This document shows positions 9,920-63,000 of a DNA stretch of 64,000 nt, piece after piece. The position numbers and the translations under genes are program-made. Numbering within the stretch: the first letter of the stretch is position 1; the number at the start of each line of letters is the position of its first letter. The stretch lies in contig CM059432.1 in assembly GCA_030390025.1 (NCBI GenBank), positions 59,522,001 to 59,586,000 of the forward strand, given 5' to 3'. The notes beneath the pieces are model-generated. The model was not told where the DNA came from. It worked only from the letters and a program-made list of their open reading frames with translations, and ran no database searches. Source of the stretch: Squalus acanthias (taxonomy: Eukaryota).

Positions 9920-12900
9920 AAATACTGCAGATGCTGGAAATCTGAAATAACAACAGAAAATGCTGGAAACACTCAGCAGGTCAGGTAGCATCGTGGAGGG
10001 AGAAACAGTAAAAGTTAAATAACAACAGAAAATGCTGGAAACAGTCAGCAGGTCAGGAAGCATCGAGGAGAGAGAAACAGAGTCAATGTTTCGAGTCGGG
10101 GACCCTTCGTCAGAACTGGAAAAGGTTAGAGAAGAGAGATTTTTAAGCAGGGGCAGGGAGGAGGGGAGGAAAGAACAAAGGGAAGGTCTGTGATAGGATG
10201 GAAGGCAGGAGAGATTGACTGACAAAAGGGATGATGGTGCGAGGCAAAAGGAGAGGTAATGGGACAAGTTAAGAAACAAAAGGTGACTCTAGATGAGGTG
10301 TAAATGATGATGGCAGCATCATTAACAGCTACCATGTGAGAAAACAAGCGAAAAAAATAAAAATATATAAAAAATACAGGGGCCGAGGTTATAGTCTGAA
10401 ATTGTTGAACTCGATGTTAAGTCTAGAAGGCTGTAAAGTGCCTAATAGAAATGCTTACATTGAGCTTCATTGGAACAGTGTAAGAGGCCGAGGACGGAGA
10501 GATCAGAATGGGAGTGGAGGGGAGAATTAAAGTGACAGGCGCCTGGAAGCTTGGGGTCACGCTTGCGGACTGAACGGAGGTGTTCCGCAAAGCGGTCACC
10601 CAATCTGCGTTTGGTCTCCCCAATGTAGAGGAGACCACATCATGAGCAGCGAATACAATATACTAAATTGCAAGAAGTACAAGTAAATCGCTGTTTCACC
10701 TGGAAGGAGTGTTTGGGGCCCTGGACGGTGGGAAGGAAGGAGGTAAAAGGGCAGGTGTTGCATCTCCTGCGCTTGCACGGGAAGGTGCCAGGTGAAGGAG
10801 AAGGGGTGTTGGGGGTGATAGAGGAGTGGACCAGGGTGTCGTGGAGGGAGCGGTCCCTTCGGAATGCTGAAAGGTGGGGGGGGGGAGGGGAAGATGTGTT
10901 TGGTGGCGGGATCACGCTGGAGGTGGCAGAAATGGCGCAGGATGATCCGTTGAATGTGGAGGCTGGTGGGGTGAAAGGTAAGGACAAGGGGAATCCTATC
11001 GTGGTTCTGGAAGGGAGGGGAAGGGGTGAGAGCTTAAGTGCGAGAAATGGAACGGACACGGTCGGGTCATGTCAACCACGGTAGAGGAGAATCCTCGGTT
11101 GAGGAAAAAGGAAGACATGTTGGAAGCACTAGTATGGAAGGTGGTATCGTCAGAACAGATGCAGCGGAGACGGAGAAACTGGGAGAATGGAATAGAGTTC
11201 TTACAGGAAGCGAGGTGGGAGGAAGTGTAGTCCAGGTAGCTGTGGGAGTCAGTGGGCTTATAGTGGATGTTGGTCGATAGCCTATCCCCAGAAATGGAGG
11301 CAGAGAAGTCGAGGAAGGGAAGGGAAGAGTCGGAGATGGACCATGTGAAGGTGAGGGAAGGGTGGAAATTGGAAGCAAAGTGAATGAAATTTGAGAGTTC
11401 AGGGTGAGAGCAGGAAACGGTACCAATACAGTCATCAGTGTACCGGAAAAAGAGGTGAGGGAGGGGACCTGAGTAGGATGGAACAAAGAATGTTCTACAT
11501 ATCCCATGAAAAGGCAGGCATAGCTAGGGCCCATGCGGGTATCCATAGCAACACCTTTAATTTGGAGGAAGTGAGTGGAGTCAAAGGAGAAGTTGTTCAA
11601 TGTGAGAACAAGTTCAGCCAGGCGGAGGAGGGTGGTGGTGGATGGGGACTGGTTGGGCCTCTGTTCAAGGAAGAAGTGGAGCGCCCTCAGGCTGTCGTGG
11701 TGGGGGATGAAGGTGTACAGGGATTGGACATCCATAGTGAAAAGGAGACAGTTGGGACAGGAAACTGGAAACTGTTAAAGTGGCGGAGGGCGTCGGAAAA
11801 GTCGCGAATATAGGCGGGAAGGGACTGGACAAGGGCAGAAAAAATAGAGTCGAGATAGGAAGAAATCAGTTCTGTGGGGCAAGAACAGGCTGAAACAATG
11901 GATCTACCAGGGCAGTCCTGTTTGTGGATCTTGGGAAGGAGTTAGAAGCGGGCTGTGTGGGGTTGGGGGACTATGAGGTTGGCGGCCATGGAGGGAAGAT
12001 CTCCGGAGGAGATGAGGTCAGTGACAGTCTTGGAAACAATGGCTTGATGTTTGGTAGTGGGGTCATGGTACAGGGGGAGGTAGGAGGAGGTGTCAGAGAG
12101 TTCCATTCAGCCTCCTCACGGTAGAGGTCGGTTCACCAAACAACAACAGCACCACCCTTGTCAGCAGGTTTAATGACAATGTTAGGGTTGGATCAGAGAG
12201 AACGGAGTGCTGCAAGTTCAGAAGGAGGTAGGTTGGAGTGAGTGAGGGGAGCAGAGAAATGGAGATGGCCGATGTCAAGCCGGCAGTTAGCAATGAAAAG
12301 ATCTAGAGAGGGTAAGAGACCAAGGGGAGGGGTCCAGGTAGACCGAGAATTCTGAAAGCGGGAGAAAGGGTCTGCTGTGTGGGGGGAAGACTCCTTGCCA
12401 AAGAAGTGGGCACTGAGACGAACATGACGGAAAAAGAGCTTGGCGTCGTGCCGAGCTCGAAATTCATTGAGATGGGGGCGTAGGGGGATGAAGCTCCGAC
12501 CTTTGCAAAGGACTTATCATTCAGGGTCAGAGAGGGGAAGGTCAGAGGGGATAGTGAAAACACGGCAGGTGAGATTGGAAGAAGGGATGGGGTCAGAGGA
12601 GAGTGAAGGGGAGGAAGGTTCCGGTGGGGCGTTGGTGTCCAAGAGTTGTTGAAGCTTGCGATCCTTGAAATCTGAAAGGAATAAAAAAAGTTTTTTGTTG
12701 AAGCGTCGGATGAGTCGAAGGATAAAATGGAACTGTGGACCAGGACAGCTTTGAGATAGAGTGCGTTGGTGCTGCTGAAGAGAGAGGTTGAAAGTGTTCA
12801 TGTGGCGACACATGGCGTTGAGCGTGGATCTCAGGATCCAACGAGAGCAGTAGTTTGAGGAACGCTGAATATCTTGGAAATATCTGTAATCCTGGGTGGA

Positions 12901-25149: not shown

Positions 25150-27738
25150 ATAGAACATAAGAACATAAGAAATAGGAGCAGGAGTAGGCCAATCGGCCCC
25201 TCGAGCCTGCTCCGCCATTCAATAAGATCATGGCTGATCTGATCCTAACCGCCAATCTACTATCTATCACAGAACCATCTCCTGCATCTAACAGAATTGC
25301 ACACACGAAATAGGAGCAGAATCAGGCTACACAGTCCCTGGGCCCGCTCCACTACCCACAGGGCCATGACCGATCCGAACCTAGACTCATGTCCAAATTC
25401 CTGCCCGCTCCCCGTAACCCTTAATGCCCTTTACTTCTAGGAAACTGTCTATTTCTGTTTTAAATTTAATTAATGTTGTAGCTTCTACAGCTTTTTGTGG
25501 CAGCATATTCCATGGACCTACCACCCTCTGAGTGAAGTAGTTCCTCCTCATCTCAGTTTTGAAAGAGCAGCCCCTTATTCTAAGACTATGTCCCCTAGTT
25601 CTCGTCTCACCCGTCATCGGGAACATCCTCCCCGCATCCACCCGATCCAACCCCTTCACAATCTTATATGTTTCAATAAGATCGCCTCTCATTCTTCTGA
25701 ACTCCAATGAGTAGAGTCCCAATCTACCCAACCTCTCCTCATATGACCACCCCCTCATCCCCGGGATTAACCGAGTGAACCTTTTTTGCACTGCCTCGAG
25801 AGCAAGGATGTCTTTCCTTAAATAAGGACACCAAAACTGTATGCAGTATTCCAGGTGCGGTCTCACCAATACCTTGTACAACTGAAGCAATACCTCCCTA
25901 TTTTTATATTCTATCCCCCTAGCAATGAAAGCCAACATTCCATTTGCCTTCTTAATCACTTGCTGCACCTGCATACTAACCTTTTGAGTTTCGTGCACCA
26001 GGACCCCCAGATCCCTTTGCACTTCAGTACTCTCCAGTTTCTTGCCATTAAGATAATAAATTGCTCTAGGATTTTTCCTGCCAAAGTGCATCACCTCACA
26101 CTTTCCAGTGTTGTATTCCATCTGCCAAATCTCTGCCCACTTACTTAGCCTGTCTATGTCCCCTTGCAGGTTTTTTATGTCCTCCTCACTCACTACTTTC
26201 CCTCCCATCTTTGTATCATCTGCAAATTTTGATATGTTACACTTGGTCCCTTCCTCCAAATCGTTAATATAGATTGTGAAGAGTTGGGGACCCAGCACTG
26301 ACCCCTGTGGAACACCACTAGTTACTGATTGCCAGTCTGAGAATGAACCATTTATCCCAACTCTTTGCTTTCTGTTAGATAGCCAATCCTCTATCCATGC
26401 CAGAATATTACCCCCAATCCCGTGATTTTTTACCTTAAGCAATAATCTTTTGTGTGGCACCTTGTCAAATGCCTTTTGGAAGTCTAAATACACTACGTCC
26501 ACTGGTTCCCCTTTATCCACTCTATATGTTACTTCCTCAAAGAACTCCAGCAAATTTGTCAAACATGACTTCCCCTTCGTAAAACCATGCTGACTTTGTC
26601 CTATTAAATTATGATTATCCAAATGTCCTGTTACTGTTTCCTTAATAATGGACTCCAAAATTTTACCTACCACAGATGTTAGGCTAACCGGTCTATAGTT
26701 ACCAGCCTTCTGTCTACTGCCCTTTTTAAATAAGGGTGTTACATTAGCAGTTTTCCAGTCTGCCGGGACCTTAGCGGAATCCAGGGAGTTTTGAAAAATT
26801 ATTACCAATGCATCTACAATCCCTACCGCCACTTCCTTCAAGACTCTAGGATGTAAGCCATCAGGTCCAGGTGATTTATCCGCCTTGAGTCCCATTATTT
26901 TACCGAGTACCACTTCCTTAGTGATTTTGATCGTGTTTAACTCCTCTCCCCCTATAGCCCCCTGTTTGTCCAGTGTTGGGATATTCTTAGTGTCCTCTAC
27001 TGTAAAGACTGATACAAAATATTCATTCAGTGTTTTTGCCATCTCCATATTTCCCACCATTAATTTCCCGGTCTCATCCTCTAAGGGACCAACATTTACT
27101 TTAGCCACCCTTTTTCTTTTTATATAACTATAAAAACTCTTACTATCTGTTTTTATATTTTTTGCTAATTTACTTTCATAATCTATCTTCCCTTTCTTAA
27201 TCAATCTTTTTGTTATTTTTTGCTGCCTTTTAAAGTTTTCCCAATCCTCTGTCCTCCCACTAGATTTCGCTACCTTATATGCCCTTGTTTTTAGTCGAAT
27301 ACTATCCTTAATTTCTTTACTTAGCCACGGATGACTGTCCTTTCTTTTACACCCTTTTCTTTTCAGTGGAATATATATTTTTTGGAAGTTGTAAAATAAC
27401 TCCTTGAATGTACACCACTGATCATGTGTCGTCTTACCCTTTAATCTATTTTCCCAATCCACTCTACTCAATTCCGCTCGCATACCTTCATAGTCTCCTT
27501 TATTCAAGCTTAGCACGCTTGTTTGAGATCCAACCTTCTCACCCTCTAATTGAATATGGAATTCAACCATGTTATGGTCACTCATTCCAAGGGGATCCTT
27601 TACTAGGACATTTTTAATTAATCCTGTCTCGTTACACAGGACCAGATCTAAGGTTGCTTGCCCCCTGGTCGGTTCAGTTACATACTGCTCAAGAAACCCA
27701 TCCCTAATACACTCAATGAACTCATCCTCAAGGCAGCC
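25150..27738 (-). mobile_element. Young 5'-truncated CR1 LINE with uninterrupted ORF2
   Basis: ORF 25387-27585 (732 aa, no stops) from the endonuclease end (SDHN) through RT to the C-terminus; (ttcttatg)n tail. Confidence 0.95.
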
Positions 27739-27739
27739 C

Positions 27740-28135
27740 TGTTGTGGTTGTTACTGGACTAGTAATCCTGGGGCCTGGACTAATGATCCGAAGGTGTGAG
27801 TTCAAAATCCGACCATGGCAGCTGGGGAATTTAAATTCAGTTAATTAAATAAATCTGGAATTAAAAAGCTAGTATCAGTAATGATGACCATGAAACTGCC
27901 AGATTGTCGTAAAAACCCATCTGGTTCACTAATGTCCTTTAGGGAAGGAAATCTGCTGTCCTTACCTGGTCTGGCCTATATGTAACTCCAGCCCCACAGC
28001 AATGTGGTTGACTCATAACTGCCCTCTGTGGTTCAAGGCGGCGGCTCACCACCTCCTTCTCAAGGGCAATTAGGGATGGGCAATAAATGCCAGCCTTGCC
28101 AGCGATGCCCACATTCCATGAATGAATAAAAAAAA
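27740..28135 (+). mobile_element. HE1-type SINE, nearly complete
   Basis: tRNA-like head with B box (gagttcaaaatcc), central core, HER1-type tail ending tgaatgaataaaaaaaa. Confidence 0.88.
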
Positions 28136-29604: not shown

Positions 29605-29982
29605 AGCCAGGAGCACAGCATACAGTCTATGTACAAGGGAAGGCATGCCCACAAATTCTGTCAAAACTACGGCCACAGAAAGTACTTTCAGTCTCTTGCA
29701 TTGAAATTACATTTTAAAAACTTTTAATTAAACTGGTACTTGAACTTATTTCATGTGTCAGCATTTTGTTAATATTATATTACAACATACCAACATGTTG
29801 ATTTTTGAAATGCACCATCTGTATAAGGTCATAGCCAAAAAACTCCCACTAGGCTTTCAGAAACAAAACATGCTTCGGTGAGAGTGGGTGCAGAAAAGGC
29901 AACTATGTACGGTAACATTTGCCAACTAAACCAAAAAATAGTTGTGTTTTCCCACCTAATCAGTATGAAATTCACATATAAT

Positions 29983-30724
29983 GGCCCAGAAATTAAAGAC
30001 GGAGCCTTCCTGCGGGGGTAAGGCTTCCCCGCGATATCTCACTGCGCGCCTGCCTTTTCCTTCCGAGCTCGCACGAACTTGAGTTTCTAGACAGCAGCTG
30101 TGCAGTGTGTGCGTATCCCACAGACGCAGTTAATTCGTGCGAGCTGTGGGATCACGTGATTCAGTTAGAGCCAATGGCAGCACACCATCTTTCATTCATA
30201 GTTTTCACAGCAAGGGCTGTGAAAGCTATGAATACTATACCCCCCCAAAAGAACAGCTAAACCTCAATTAAATTTTTTTTAAAAACCATCACATTAATAA
30301 AATAAGTATAGTTAAATCAATTAACCACTTTAAACAAAAAATTAAATGTTTGAAAAAATTTAAAATCTTTTTAAAAGTTATAAAAATAAACTTACCTTTC
30401 TTTAAAGTCTCTAAAAAAGATATACCTGTTGAAAAAAATTCAAAATACTTAATTAACTACTTACCTTGTTAAAAGAGGGTCTTACGCCTCCTTTCTTTAT
30501 GTGCAAAATCTTCCATGCTTACCTGCACGTTCAAAGCACTAAGTGCACTGCGTGCGCGCAGCCTGTAGCGCGCACGCGGTTCACTTAGGAACCGCCCCCT
30601 TTTGAAATCACCAAGTGCCGGTTTTCAGCGCATGCGCAGTGCATGCAGAAAACCGACAATTGGAGACAGAATACGCGAGAGTACACAGTGCGTACTCTCG
30701 CGCAGTGAGACTAATTTTTGGGCC
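29983..30724. mobile_element. Harbinger-type MITE, copy 1
   Basis: TIR ggcccagaaatta / taatttttgggcc, 3-bp TSD aat/aat, colinear with 44444-45196. Confidence 0.85.
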
Positions 30725-39515: not shown

Positions 39516-40409
39516 TTGGTTGGGGAAAAAGGAAGGTATATCAGGAGCACTGGTGAGGAAGATGGCGTCATCAGAACAGATGCAATGGAGACGGAGAAAC
39601 TAGGAGAATGGAATAGAGCCCTTAAAGGAAGCGGGGTGGGAGGAAGTGCAATCAAGGTAGCTGTGGGAGTCAGTGGGCTTATAGTAGTCTATCTCCAGAA
39701 ATGGAGATAGAGAAGTCGAGGAAGGGAAGAGTCGAAGTTGGACCATGTGGAGGCGAGGGAGGGGTGGAAATTAGAAGCAAAGTTGATGCAAGAGCATGAA
39801 GCGGCACTGATACAGTCATCAGTGTACTGGGAAAAAGAGGTGAGGGAGGGATCCTGAGTAGGATTGAAACAAAGAATGTTCGATGTAACCCACAAAAAGG
39901 CAGGCATAGCCAGGTCCCATACAGGTTCCCTTGGCAACACCTTTTTAGAGGAAGTGAGAGGAATCAAAGTAGAAGTTGTTCAATGTAAGAATAAGTTCAG
40001 CCAGGCGGAGGAGGGTAGTGGTGGATGGGGATTAGTTGGGCCCCATTCAAGGAAGAAGCGGAGGGCCCACAGGCCATCCTGGTGGGGGATGGAGGTGTAG
40101 AGGGGCTGGGCGTCCATGGTGAAAAGGAGACAGTTAGGGCCTGGAAACTGTTAAAGTGGCAGAGGGCATCAGAAGAGACTGGGCAAGGGGAGAAAAGAAG
40201 AAATAAATTCCATGGGGCAAGAACAGGCTGAAATGATGGGTCTACCAGGGTAGTCCTGTTTGAGGATCTTGGGAAGGAGGTAGAAGTGGACTGTGGGGTT
40301 GGGGGACTATGAGTTTGGAGGCTATGCAGGGAAGATCGCCAAAGAAGATGAGGTCAGTGACCTTGTGGGTGGTTATAAATCACCATTATAAAAAGGAGCC
40401 AGAGACATT

Positions 40410-42046: not shown

Positions 42047-43656
42047 ATTGTATTTTTCATATGCAAATATACTGTTTACAAGACTTTATACAGACTCCTT
42101 GCTTGGTCCTGAAACAATCAATTCAAGGTAAATGGCTCCACATACAAATAACTGAAGTAGATGATTGCTATCATCTACTTCAGTTCAGGAAACTATCACA
42201 ACCTTGATGAGCTATTTCAAATGCTATATCCACTTTATTGATTTCCTGTATCCTGATTTTGAATTTCAAAGGATATGAAAGATATATCTCAGGCTGCATG
42301 CTCCCAACTCTTCAGTTCTTCTGAGCCCAAGAAAGAGGTCAAAACCTCAGATATAAGTTAGGGATGATGGTCCAATTTAATATTAAGAGTTAACTGAAAG
42401 AAAGAACATATTTGTATTTATACAGCGCCTTTCATGAGCTCAAGATGTCCCAAAGCTCTTCACAGACAATGATGTGCCATGTCTTATTTTGTACCCCGGA
42501 GGTAGAAGTCAATATATTCTGTTTTCTATAGCATTTATTCTTATGCTATTCAAAGATTAGACAGAAGAGGCCTTGCATCAGATCCAGTAAGCTAAATATA
42601 GTACAAGTGTTTGTCTTCAGTCTCTGGGCAATAGTACATCACCAAATATTATGCATATAAAGTCAAACTTTGGTTCATAGGGAGCAAGGGCTCATGATGG
42701 GAGTGTTCTTTGACAGTGCACATCAAAGAAATAGCTGGTAAAACCTAAAAATGTAAGCAGTATCCATTCATCACTAGCCCTGCAACTTGCCAGAAATCCC
42801 TCAGCTAGAGTTGCAGTGCTCCTATATCAAGTACTTGCTCTCCTTTCATAACTAGCACAGTGTACACACTTCTATCTGTGTACTTGTACTCAAATAAGAA
42901 GACTGTCAGAGAACCTTTGAAAACTCAACTGGTAAGAGTGATGGAGTGTATTGAAATGTTCACTAAAGTCATTCTTAGGTACCATCTTCCATGGTTCTGA
43001 CTGTGCTTGATGCATTGGCAGTTAATCTCGAAGGTGGCAGGTGTGGTGAGGGACAACCACTTGTTTTCCAAAACAAGCGTATCTCAATATTCCTCTGCCA
43101 ACCTGCACAAAGCTCTTTTGTTTAGGTACTTGTGGTAAGGTTTAGACCATTAATAGGATGAGCTGCAATTGAAAACACAGCATTCATTTTGACATAATAG
43201 AATTCTATTTGACAAGCTTGGAGTGTTGAGTGTAGGGAAAATGCCCCATAATTTGCCTAAAATGTGTTCCCTAAATGGACTTTCAACTTAAAGATGTCCA
43301 AGAAAATAATCAATAGGGAAACTGAATGCTGGGAAATCAAAACTAACTAAAATTGAGAAGGCATGTAGAAGTGAACAGAACATTCCTTACTAGTGCTAAG
43401 ATGGCCAACATTAAGTATTGTGCTCAAGAATAGTTCATTGGTGGGATGTAAATATGTCATGCCTTATCAGGTCCTGTATAGGACCCTTTGTTAAAGAAAA
43501 CTGTTTGTGGGGGAGGGGGGGGGGGGAGGGCAGTGTCAGTATCGTCTGCTATGCATGCCTTGTTAACTTGATGCGGAGATGCCGGTGTTGGACTGGAGTG
43601 GACAAAAGTGAGAAGTCGCACAACACCAGGTTATAATCCAACAGCTTTATTTGAAA

Positions 43657-43693
43657 TCACAAGCTTTCGGAGCGCTGCTCCTTCGTCAGGTGA
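43657..43693 (-). ncRNA. Minimal hammerhead ribozyme motif, left arm
   Basis: tcac-CTGACGA-a-ggagc-agc-gctcc-GAAA-gc-TT-gtga. Confidence 0.75.
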
Positions 43694-43881
43694 AGTGAAG
43701 AAATACATATGGGCACAGCATATATAGTCAGAGAACAATGCCAGACGACTACAGTTAATCTTTCTAACTGCCCTTTACAGGTCTATCACAGGTGTGATAA
43801 AGGGCAGTTAGAAAGATTAACTGTAGTCGTCTGGCAGTGTTCTCTGACTATATATGCTGTGCCCATATGTATTTCTTCACT

Positions 43882-43918
43882 TCACCTGATGAAGGAGCAG
43901 TGCTCCGAAAGCTTGTGA
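43882..43918 (+). ncRNA. Minimal hammerhead ribozyme motif, right arm
   Basis: tcac-CTGATGA-a-ggagc-agt-gctcc-GAAA-gc-TT-gtga. Confidence 0.75.
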
Positions 43919-44096
43919 TTTCAAATAAAGCTGTTGGACTATAACCTGGCGTTGTGCGACTTCTCACTTTTGTTAACTTGAGATCAGGAACCCTTGCAAG
44001 GTTGTTAGAAATGACTGACACGTTAGCCAGTTTGTCACTTCAGGTATATAAAAGAGGGTGCTAGGCACACTCCTTCGTAGATTCTCTCACTCCCTT

Positions 44097-44164
44097 AGAT
44101 TCTCTTTTAGTTAGAAGATTCTCTTTTAGTTAGAAGATTCTTTTTTAGTTAGAAGATTCTCTTT
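44097..44164. repeat. 19-bp tandem repeat, ~3.5 copies
   Basis: agattctcttttagttaga repeated. Confidence 0.95.
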
Positions 44165-44443: not shown

Positions 44444-45196
44444 GGCCCAGAAATTAGACTTCGATGGTTGCCGCGGGGGTAAGGATCCGGCGCGATCTTA
44501 CCTACCGCGCCTGCCTTTATGGTTCGGGCCCACACGAACTTCTGGTCCTGGGCCTCTCCCTGGTGCCGGCGCGCAGTGTGTGCGTGTCCCAGAGGCGCAG
44601 TTAGTTCGATGCGACCTCTGGGATCACGTGGGCCAGTTAGAGCCAATGGCAGCACACCATCTTTCATTCATAGTTTTGACAGGAGAACTGTCAAAACTAT
44701 GAATACAACTTGCCCCCAAAAGAACAGCTAAACCTCAATTAATTTTTTTAAAAAACCCATCACATTAATAAAATAACTATAGTTAAATAAATTAACCACT
44801 TTAAACAAAAATTTAAATTTTTGAAAAGATTTAAATTCTTTTTAAAAGTTATAAAAATAAACTTACCTTTCTTTAAAGTCTCTAAAAACGATAAACCTGT
44901 TGAAAAAAATTTTAAATACTTAATTAACTACTTACCTTGTTAAAAGGGGGTCTTACGCCTCCTTTTTTCATGTGTAAAATCTTCCATACTTACCCTCGTG
45001 TTCAAACCGGGAAAAAAAACCTAAGTGTGCTGCGTGCGCACAGCCTGTAGTGCGCACGTGGTTCACTTAGGAACCGCCCCCTTCGCAATATCGGAAGTGC
45101 CGGTTTCCCACGCATGCGTAGTGCATGCAGGAAACCGGCACTTCGGGACCGAATACGGGTGAGTACACAGTGCGTACTCGGCCGAATTTCTGGGCC
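44444..45196. mobile_element. Harbinger-type MITE, copy 2
   Basis: TIR ggcccagaaatt / aatttctgggcc, TSD aat/aat, colinear with 29983-30724. Confidence 0.88.
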
Positions 45197-52055: not shown

Positions 52056-53087
<1,032 letters not shown>

Positions 53088-57513: not shown

Positions 57514-57838
57514 ATTGAATTAATCATAAGCAGCTCGGTTCCCATAGTACAGATAAATGAAGGATCCACACCTGAATCGATAATTTGTCTGTTCTCTTCA
57601 TAGATGCTGCCTGAAACATTCCTATATAAAATCAATTACTGAACATATCAGCCCAAGGAAGCACTGCAAGAAAAATTAATATTTTGCAACTCATGGTATT
57701 GAAAGAATGAGTTATAACCTGGCGTTATGTCTTAGTTTTGAAGTATTGGGAGAATACACACCCTTACAACTTTCGAAAAATGGTTAAGCACTATGATTGC
57801 ACAGCATTTAGCAAATTTGCCCTAAGACAAGGACTTAC

Positions 57839-59017
57839 AGCTTCAGACTTCGGAGGCACTGGAGGTGGAGGTAGAGAAATATCAGATGATGGTTTAACTG
57901 TAGACAAAGGACCTGGAGAAGAAAGGGCTGAAGAAGCCGGACACTTAGAGTGGATGGAACCTCTCTGACTACCAGATTTCAATCTCTCCCCCAAAGAGGA
58001 AAGGTCTTGTCCACCCCGTTTCCCTGTTCCCTCATCTAACCAGAGCTCTTCGTAGGGAAGTTCTGACCGTGACTGGATTCCAGCAGATTCTTCAGTCACA
58101 TCAGGCAGCAAATAATCACTCCCACTGTCTCCTGAATCTTGAGATGGGAGGGTTTCGTGAGAAAAGAGAGTCCACTCACTGCTTGGATCTCTGCAGCCAT
58201 GCAGATTAACTTCACTATTTCCGTGCAAATTATTTCCATAAACACATACTGAAAGCCGATGGAAAGACTGCGTCAGTTCTTCACGAGCATAACTAAGGGA
58301 GTTAGGTATGTGACTGTGCCCAGTACATCTGGTCTTCTTTGGGCTTTTACAATCTTCATTCCAGTCAGTCTTCACATCCCGAACTGCTCGTGAATATTCT
58401 TCAATGTCGAACTGCTCCTGACAAATGCTGAACGAGTGCTGAACTGTGTTCTCGTACCACATCTCTCCCTTAAGGAGACCTTCAGCTAAGGTAAACTTTG
58501 GCACAACTAAATGAAGTGGAAAGTGCACTGGAATCATTTTGTTGTTGCGAAGTACGCAGCACACAACAACAGTCTTAGTTTGGATATTAACAAATTTATA
58601 GCGATGGCCCTCCCGAATGAAGTGTAGATCATAGGGGTTTCGTGGAGGAGCAGACGGCACAACAACATTTACTGGTAACCTAGTCTTTTCAACAATGTTG
58701 CGAATAGTGTGCTCACCCTCTTGCATTTGTATCTCAAGGGGACTACGTGTACTGAATCGACCTTTACACTGGAAGGGAAGGCTAATGCTTTCATTGGTCC
58801 GGTGATTCATACAAATAAGGCAAGGCATCTTTCCTCGTCCAAACTTGCTGATGGAATTTAGTTTTCCAATTTTCTTAAAAATAGTGTTAAGTCGTGACTT
58901 TTCCTTCGATGTTTTGGCATAAAGGATTTCTGCTTGCCCCATTAGAGTAAGTTCATCCCCAGTGCTCAAAGCGATGTTGTACACTTCTGTATCTTCGTTG
59001 CACTCTCCAGAGGCTAC
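57839..59017 (-). CDS. GAREM1: GAREM1 large internal exon (CABIT region to PPPPVPPK)
   Basis: 1179 nt, ctatag| ... |gtaagt, phase 0/0; VASGECNEDTEVYNIALSTGDELTLMGQAEILYAK...LPPPPVPPKSEA. Confidence 0.97.
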
Positions 59018-60080: not shown

Positions 60081-63000
60081 TGACGAAGGAGTGGCGTCAC
60101 AATTCAAAGGTGTCGCTGGCACAAGGGAGCTGAGAGGTGAGTATAATGAGAGTATTTGTGGTAAGTTTTTTTTTGTTCTGTTTTGAGTATATTTCTGCTA
60201 AGTAGTTCATAGCCTATCTAATAGAGGGAAGTGCTGATTGGTGGGTAGCTGTTGAGTGTTTCTTGTTAAGTTTTAAGTTTATTTCTGCTAAATTACCTCT
60301 AGTCTGGTAAATAGAGGCTTGGCAGGGCAGCTCAGTCCCGTGATTTGCACATCCTGTGCCATGTGGGATATCCTGGACGCTTCTTGTGGCCTGGACGACC
60401 ACGTGTGCAGGAAGTGTCGCCAACTGCAGCAACTCGAGCTCCGTGTTTCGGAGCTTGAGCGGCAGCTGGAGTCACTACAGTGCATCCGTGAGGCTGAGAA
60501 ATACTTGGAAAGCACGTTTCTAGAAGCGGTCACCCCGCAGCCTCAGAATGTGCAGGCAGAGAGGGAATGGGTGACCACCAGGCAGAGGAGGAGGAGGACC
60601 AGGCAGGTAGGGCAGGAATCCCCAGAGTGCATCTCGCTCACTAACAGGTTCACAGCTCTGCAAACTGGTGGGGGTGATGGTTCCTCTGGGGAGAGCAGCC
60701 AGAGCCAAGGCCACGGCACCACAGGTGGCTCAGCTGCACAGGGGGGGGGGGGGAGGAAGAAGAGTGGAAGAACAATAGTGATAGGGGATTCATTAGTTAG
60801 GGGAACAGATAGGCGTTTCTGTGGACGCAGACGTGACTCCAGGATGGTATGTTGCCTCCCTGGTGCCAGGGTCAAGGATGTCACTGAGCGGCTGCAGGAC
60901 ACTCTGATGGGGGAGGGTGAAAGGCCAGAGGTCGTTGTCTGTGACGGTACCAACGACATAGGTAGAATGAGGGATGAGGTCCTGCAGGCAGACTATAGGG
61001 ATCTAGGAAAGAGATTAAAAAGCAGGACCTCAAAAAGGTAGTAATCTCCGGATTACTCCTGGTGCCACTTGCTAGTGAGTACAGGAATAGGAGGATAGAA
61101 CAGAAGAATGCGTGGCTGGAGAGATGGTGCAGGAGGGAGGGCTTTAGATTCCTGAGGCATTGGGAATGTTTCTGGGGAAGGTGGGACCTGTACAAGCCAG
61201 ATGGGTTACGCCTCAACAGAGCTGGGACCAATATTCTCGTGGGAAGGTTTGCTAGTACTGTTGGGGAGGGTTTAAACTAGCTTGGCAGGAGGATGGGCAC
61301 CAGCATATAGGAGTAGAAAAGAGGAATAGGTGCATAAAAGAGTGAGTGTGTTGGATAGTACTAGAGAAGAAAGTCGTACTAGAGGCAGAAGTAGTAACAT
61401 ATTAGATAGGAGCAGACTAAGAAAAATTCCAAAATGGGTTTAGAATGCATGTACGTAAATGCACAAAGTGTGGTGAATAAGGTTGGTGAGCTACAAGCAC
61501 AATTAGCCGTGTGGCAATATGATGTGGCAATAACGGAAATGTGGCTTAAAAACGGTGAGGACTGGGCACTTAATATTCAAGGGTACAAGGTATTCAGAAA
61601 AGATAGGGAAGGAAAAAAGGGAGGTGGGGTGGCAGTGCTGATTAAGGAAGACATTGTAGTGTTGGAAAGGGAGGATGTTCTTGAGGGGACAAGGACAGAA
61701 TACATTTGGTTAGAGCTGAGGAGCAAAAAGGGTATGATCACGCTATTGAGAGTATTCTACAGGCCTCCAAATAGTGAGGGGGAAGTAGAGGAGCAAATCT
61801 GCAGGGAAATCGCAGAGATATGCAAGAGCTACAGAGTGGTGATATTGGGGGACTTTAATTACCCGAGTATTGATGGGATAATGCTAGGGTAAAGGGAAAG
61901 GAGGGGGAGGAATTTCGGAAATGTGCTCAGGAGAATTTCCTTGACCAATATGTTCTTGGCTCAACTAGGAAGGAGACATTGCTGGATCTGGTGCTGGGGA
62001 ATGAGGTGGGCCAGGTCGACCAAATGTCTGTGGGAGAACACTTGGGTACGAGTGATCGTCGTATCATAAGATTTAGATTAGCAATGGAGAGGAGCAAGGA
62101 ACAATCTAAAGTGGAACTTCTAAACTGGAATAGGGCTAACTTCAATGGGGTGCGAAAGGATCTAGCCAGGGTAAAATGAAACCAAAGACCGACAGCAAAA
62201 ACTGTAACGGAACAATGGGTGATCTTTAAGGAGGAGATGTTCCAAGTACAGGCTAGGTACATTCCAACAAGAGGGAAGAGTAAGGGAACCAAAGCAAGGG
62301 ATCCTTGGATGAAGAGTGAGATAGAGAAGATGATGAAACAAAAAGAGGGCGTATGATGAATGTCAGGTGAATTCTTCAAGGGAGAACCAGACCAAATACA
62401 ATAAGTTGAGAGGGGAAGTGAAGATGAAAATAAGATTGGCAAAGAGAGAATATGAGAGTAGAATGGCAGTTAACATAAAAGGGAACCCAAAAAATCTTCT
62501 ACCGGCATGTAAACAGTAAGCGAGTAGTAAGAGGCGGGGTGGGGCCTATTAGGGACAAATAAGGTGATATATGCTTAGAGGTGCAGGGCAAGGCTAGAAT
62601 AGTCAATGAGTACTTTGTATCGGTGTTTACTAAGGAGGTGGATGCTGACAAAATATCGGTAGAAATGGAAAAGGTAGAAGCAATGGAAGGGGCGAAAATT
62701 GATAGACAGGATGTACTAGAAAGGCTGGGTATTAGTGGATAGGTCACCTGGTCCAGATGGCTTGCATCCCAGATTGCTAAGGGAATTGGGGGAGGAGATA
62801 GCAGAAGGGCTTGCCATAATTTTCCAATCTTCCCTAGATGCGGGGGAGGTGCCCGAGGATTGGAAAGTGGCAAATGTGACACCATCGTTCAAGAAAGGGT
62901 GTAAGGACAATCCTAGTAACTACAGGCCGGTCAGTTTAACATCAGTGGTGGGTAAAGTTTTAGAAACAATAATCAAGGAAAAAATTAATGGGCAATTGGA

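Follow-up and report, generated by a model that had tools for sequence, protein, structure and literature searches.

A short head-to-head insertion of a Penelope-like element, one among thousands in the Squalus acanthias genome

A stretch of 64,000 nucleotides from Squalus acanthias (contig CM059432.1, positions 59,522,001 to 59,586,000; hereafter the window) contains a non-coding sequence of about 400 bp that is almost entirely one inverted repeat and carries a hammerhead motif on both strands. The question raised by this locus is whether such a sequence moves as a unit of its own or has been left behind by the activity of another element. The first-pass annotation, made from the letters of the window, had offered both answers, an extreme truncation-inversion product of a Penelope-like element (PLE) or a member of a non-autonomous, retrozyme-like family. 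We conclude that it is an ordinary short head-to-head PLE insertion, one among thousands. More specifically, we assign a probability of about 0.88 to the reading that a single insertion brought in the end of an autonomous, endonuclease-bearing PLE as two 5'-truncated copies in head-to-head arrangement, likely as a one-off with no hairpin master behind it. Published systems are compared below as they appear in excerpts of the cited papers.

The physical description of the unit proved accurate. The inverted repeat extends over 43597-43777 and 43798-43978, with arms of 181 nt that are 96% complementary, and the 12-bp TSD reported at its ends is the direct repeat TTGTTAACTTGA. On folding, the whole unit (43560-43981) forms one rod of -337.7 kcal/mol (z = -35). 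The limits of the TSD are ambiguous, as its last three and first four bases also match the element (Table 1), but a length of 12 bp is credible because this is the family mode, found exactly in 20 of 49 sister copies with an inverted arm. An assembly artefact is ruled out by the differences between the arms (5 of about 175 positions), by the TSD and by the recurrence of the same plan at sister loci. A reading as a miRNA or MITE is likewise ruled out, the arms being PLE pLTR sequence, the ends asymmetric and the TSD about 12 bp long.

Table 1. Coordinates of the unit's features within the window, in order of their first position.
Feature	Position	Strand	Remarks
TSD, left copy	43560..43571	.	direct repeat; last 3 bases overlap the element's start; family mode 12 bp
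Tail, extension of about 33 nt on the left arm only	43569..43601	-	in the parent reaches the ORF start codon
Tail-bearing arm (pLTR; the element's terminal 209 nt)	43569..43777	-	92% identity to ORF-linked copy L132
Minimal type I hammerhead motif, left arm	43657..43693	-	cut predicted from sequence between 43661 and 43660 (U17)
Predicted promoter, left arm	43694..43726	-	from sequence: TATATATG (43726-43719), 20 nt, TCACT (43698-43694); layout as in Pen2a_Av; sister-copy arm ends cluster here
Copy-specific junction, 12 nt	43778..43789	.	sequence and genome search
Tail-less arm, same pLTR in opposite orientation	43790..43973	+	95% identity to L132
Predicted promoter, right arm (mirror)	43849..43881	+	from sequence: TATATATG (43849-43856), TCACT (43877-43881)
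Minimal type I hammerhead motif, right arm (mirror)	43882..43918	+	cut predicted from sequence between 43914 and 43915
TSD, right copy	43970..43981	.	direct repeat; first 4 bases are shared with the element's continuation

The hammerheads, too, are as first described, with a CUGANGA...GAAA core, a 5-bp stem II, a 4-bp stem I and AGCU in both arms. Both are of the minimal type I, with an extra A before stem II and U17 at the cut. A scan of the window against Rfam at E <= 1 returned no hammerhead family, only three weak miRNA-hairpin matches that stem from the inverted repeat. Of 188 arms of sister copies, 151 have an intact core and a paired stem II. When two hammerhead units were folded by energy, an intermolecular stem II duplex was predicted rather than an active dimer; such folding is uninformative on activity. 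The minimal hammerheads of metazoan PLEs, as presented in the excerpts of PMC4209133, share the core, the extra base before stem II, the short stem I and the palindromic AGCU that replaces stem III; the hammerhead described here, known from its sequence, has a stem II of 5 bp versus 7-8 bp in the Schistosoma examples. The same excerpts describe pairs of minimal hammerheads on opposite strands, 100-700 bp apart, ascribe most motifs to truncated PLEs and give the in vitro activity of such motifs as low.

The arms correspond to the terminal ~210 nt of an abundant PLE. In longer copies the arm is followed by the 3' UTR and then by a frame with a GIY-YIG-type domain at its end. The subfamily of the window's copy is marked by an 18-nt deletion, and a 35-mer diagnostic of it matches the 3.7 Gb genome at 807 sites; the matches listed include pairs on opposite strands separated by 35 bp to 3.1 kb. 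One subfamily member, L132, has a frame of 673 aa with an RVT_1 match (E 5e-8) and a DKG motif; its GIY-YIG-type C-terminus was read from the translation and gave no Pfam match. A CX4CX2C linker precedes the GIY-YIG-type domain in L039, L060 and L133, with the first Cys altered in L132. This agrees with the CX2-5CxxC linker that, together with a GIY-YIG domain containing a CCHH motif, defines the Neptune and Nematis clades according to the excerpts of PMC8557442, and it differs from Penelope/Poseidon, which have no such linker. The parent is likely a Neptune-type, autonomous, endonuclease-bearing element. An intact full-length parent was not among the copies retrieved, and its 5' and 3' parts come from two different broken ones (L181 and L132). 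The tail ends at the start of the ORF: many copies continue into ATGGC(C/T)A (1,714 exact matches), and the same N-terminal reading frame continues beyond this heptamer in 3 of 30 such loci.

The window itself also contains two decayed Penelope-like copies with coding sequence (10493-12351 and 39567-40285, both on the minus strand), and a hammerhead motif with a different stem II, near 10118 (-), belongs to one of them. That the unit is distinct from both had been pointed out before, and it holds: neither has a DNA match to the unit, and they are only 29-41% identical in protein sequence to its parent. Much of the window is occupied by LINE-type elements, among them a 787-aa frame with RVT_1 at 25387-27750 (-) and a fragment with an endonuclease/exonuclease/phosphatase domain at 61410-61892 (+). 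Two frames, at 52056-53087 and 57791-59017 (-), are presumably exons of a GAREM-like gene, the stub being some 8 kb downstream. They show a CABIT domain (E 1e-33) and, below the cut-off, a weak match to SAM. Immediately to the right of the stub, roughly four to five 19-bp units are repeated in tandem (44074-44164), and a small GC-rich hairpin at 45093-45145 is part of a repeat with a second copy at about 29979-30697.

Whether the unit has been copied as such was addressed through its junction. With up to 2 mismatches allowed, a 36-mer across the junction has a single genomic match, and uniqueness is precisely the result that the first-pass annotation had itself named as speaking against a propagating unit. 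A search with the whole unit gave 2,245 candidates, of which the best 40 were scored by similarity to the query, and nearly all of these are full-length fold-backs. The 30 loci returned reduce to 25 places in the genome that differ in their flanks, and these 25 best look-alikes have 24 different junctions. The only junction in common is that of L003 and L023, two copies that differ in the subfamily markers of both arms. A small propagating subfamily could be missed in a similarity-ranked set of this kind (40 of 2,245 scored).

Because the look-alikes are biased toward the query, a second sample was drawn by the tail alone. A tail 49-mer has 6,017 exact matches, and the first 70 listed (contig C1, in chromosome order) were examined; the sample favours young copies and includes two non-independent pairs, the near-duplicates L033/L034 and the overlapping L057/L058. 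It comprises 44 contiguous fold-backs, 5 fold-backs with a spacer and 21 copies without an inverted arm inside 1.5 kb. The fold-backs range from 160 to 1316 nt in length and have copy-specific junctions. Of the 49 sister copies with an inverted arm, 43 have a short arm beginning at 29-46, and both arms end at 195-260, as in the window's unit, in only 1 of the 70. An exhaustive search for a fold-back pattern at the same spot, with a spacer of 3-15 nt that is too short to take in the window's own unit, found 25 loci genome-wide with one repeated spacer, shared by a pair on C13 and C27. This pair was rejected as a propagating junction, as the two are in opposite orientation relative to the tail and have different arm types. 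Two further pairs (L134/L135 and L145/L146) show an identical element structure at matching offsets and are likely segmental or assembly duplicates rather than new insertions.

The positions at which arms end provide information on the template. In each arm of the unit a TATA-like box is followed, after 20 nt, by TCACT, which resembles an initiator. In the unselected sample 118 arm ends were counted, leaving aside the second arms of four loci, which belong to other insertions. Measured from the tail end, 47 of the 118 fall at 120-129, 12 at 130-139 and a single one at 140-149, and position 127-128 is the A of TCACT, 20 nt after TATATATG. We infer from this pile-up at the predicted start that most stubs copy in full the short 5' end of a transcript that begins at TCACT, and that the window's copy, which reaches about 80 nt upstream of that start, was templated by the 3' pLTR of a longer RNA. 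The predicted ribozyme cut (88-96) accounts for only 2 of the 118 ends, and ribozyme-cut RNA was rejected as the template on this ground; the scarcity of such ends is consistent with the excerpts of PMC11167929, in which reverse transcription in vitro relies mainly on uncleaved RNA.

An inverted truncated copy, a one-sided tail and a TSD are together the published signature of endonuclease-bearing (EN+) PLEs. All elements of the EN+ PLE structure with inverted pLTR are present, namely an RT/GIY-YIG parent, a truncated head-to-head copy, a tail on one side, a TSD and a hammerhead motif. Published insertions of this structure (Pen2a_Av and others, as excerpted from PMC3846280; PMC8557442, Fig. 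2) likewise have an adjacent, inverted, 5'-truncated copy in head-to-head arrangement. The Pen2a_Av type further shares the tail of 30-40 nt at one end only and a pLTR with TATA, 20 nt and TCACT, and its TSDs are 8-10 bp long versus the modal 12 bp here (PMC3846280, same excerpts). Unlike those units, both copies here are too short for any ORF, and such stubs are the majority of the copies sampled. A literature search, with Repbase, Dfam and subscription journals (which may catalogue the family) outside its scope, found no shark hairpin family of this kind described. The truncation-inversion alternative of the first-pass annotation is supported by the pLTR arms, the coding parent and the unique junction.

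How might such a structure arise? We consider it fairly probable that two cDNAs are primed at one target. The GIY-YIG nuclease of the element would make a staggered cut of about 12 nt, and each 3' end would then prime a separate cDNA with uncleaved RNA of the element as template, one starting at about the ORF start codon and the other some 30-45 nt upstream. Both cDNAs would halt early, and their 3' ends would be joined via microhomology or a short filler; the hammerheads would be passengers inherited from the pLTR. This is reminiscent of Poseidon_Ac of Anolis, which shares a tail bounded by two RT start sites, AT-rich targets and uncleaved RNA as the main template. In the excerpts of PMC11167929, the Anolis protein extends both target strands in vitro, two internal RT starts bound the tail and a dimer is predicted. 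The outer RT start is located 92 nt beyond the predicted ribozyme cut in the present element and 85-92 nt beyond it in Poseidon_Ac, as computed from the figures in that material. A difference is the ORF start, which in Poseidon_Ac lies inside the ribozyme and here at the end of the tail.

A doubtful alternative, in our view, is that the first cDNA folds back on itself, or primes on an antisense template, and is copied until about 35 nt short of the tail. Self-priming has been suggested for rotifer Penelope (PMC3846280, in the excerpted part), and the last six bases of the window's junction pair with GTGATA of the right arm over a 4-nt loop, giving a mini-hairpin TATCAC-AGGT-GTGATA that looks like brief self-priming and counts as a point against twin priming. 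The arms are also highly concordant at subfamily markers, with discordance at site 77 in 6 of 69 cases versus 34.8 expected under independence. Such concordance fits a single source locus, and it also fits snap-back copying or later gene conversion. What speaks against snap-back is mainly arm length. A copy cannot outgrow its template, yet among 44 pLTR fold-backs (14 of 46 before L060 and L116 were removed, their second arm being an internal ORF inversion) the tail-less arm is the longer one in 12, with a maximum excess of 523 nt (601 vs 78; another pair has 908 vs 461), the shorter one in 13 and within 5 nt of the other in 19, the last of these speaking for snap-back. A longer tail-less arm also occurs in several copies of the window's own subfamily (L078, 800 vs 279; L080, 452 vs 299). 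Each arm then has sequence absent from the other, a finding in favour of two cDNAs with separate priming; alternatively, the tail-less arm could have become the longer one after insertion through uneven deletion at the unstable centre of the palindrome.

Sequence differences between arms point the same way. Loop II of the hammerhead has an insertion in one arm and not in its partner in 12 of 31 unselected pairs, the other subfamily markers being mostly concordant, which suggests a recurrent copying error at the small loop II hairpin. Loop II corresponds to 43671-43677 and 43897-43903 of the window, and examples with differing arms are L037, L043, L049 and L112. In L182 (G000:C13:62646050-62646900) the arms are of different deletion types, the 18-nt deletion being present in one only, and this locus is a candidate for copying from two distinct templates within a single insertion, or for slippage.

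A separate matter is whether a copy such as the window's, once inserted, could act as a secondary donor. It retains TATA/initiator, hammerhead and RT-start region, and its outward transcripts could be mobilised in trans and seed stubs of about 128 nt. The predicted promoter is intact in both arms, and rotifer pLTR sequences sufficed for mobilisation in trans (PMC3846280, excerpts). We nevertheless regard this as improbable: many stubs pass through the tail into the ORF start, at the frequencies given above, and must have been templated on ORF-linked RNA, beyond anything the window's copy could supply. Mobilisation in Anolis also required the ORF's first 172 nt, although in that system they take in the ribozyme-to-tail region (PMC11167929, excerpts).

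It is very improbable that a non-autonomous fold-back family, with a retrozyme-like or SINE-like master, has been copied as an entire unit of about 400 nt: at least 25 distinct loci with their own flanks are of near-equal length and 89-96% identical across the unit, and one junction recurs, but these loci were chosen by query similarity, junctions are copy-specific in both samples and unique in the window, which largely refutes this reading, the recurrent junction joins arms with different markers, mismatches at the recurrent site 188 go in both directions between arms, and tandem arrays were not seen among the copies examined. The non-LTR retrozymes (10.64898/2026.07.22.740005, as excerpted) resemble the unit in being non-coding, in their type I hammerhead and in their PLE pLTR origin; they are head-to-tail tandem units with a ribozyme per unit on one strand, whereas here the arrangement is head-to-head with one hammerhead motif per strand and, instead of a fixed unit, a unique junction and variable breakpoints. 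The designation as a mobile unit or retrozyme-like family therefore has to be given up, given breakpoints that vary continuously in sister copies, a coding parent and a head-to-head rather than tandem structure.

The unit is thus a by-product of a known and here very frequent kind, likely a dead end and not a self-copying ribozyme element. The suggestion that a transcript from either strand would be a double-stranded rod applies to read-through from outside, which across such stubs is predicted to yield long double-stranded RNA. It does not apply to the start sites predicted in the arms; these point outwards and would give RNA without an antisense partner. Assembled contigs of 4 of 24 listed runs from other organisms, possibly RNA, cover the repeat and not its adjacent unique flanks, and so bear neither on this locus nor on start sites or cleavage.

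The value of these stubs is as data, since thousands of them in one genome permit breakpoint statistics, which can discriminate between twin priming and snap-back, place the start site and show whether ribozyme-cut RNA serves as a template. At odds slightly better than even, we interpret them as an in vivo record of twin target-primed reverse transcription (TPRT) by a dimeric Penelope protein, in which the two cut DNA ends are primers of their own at two fixed sites about 35 nt apart on uncleaved RNA, with most cDNAs reaching the transcript's 5' end at the pLTR initiator before being joined head-to-head. The origin of the inverted repeats and tails of PLEs is given as still undefined in the excerpts of PMC8557442; if this interpretation is true, twin TPRT would account for the long-unexplained structure of an inverted pLTR plus tail.
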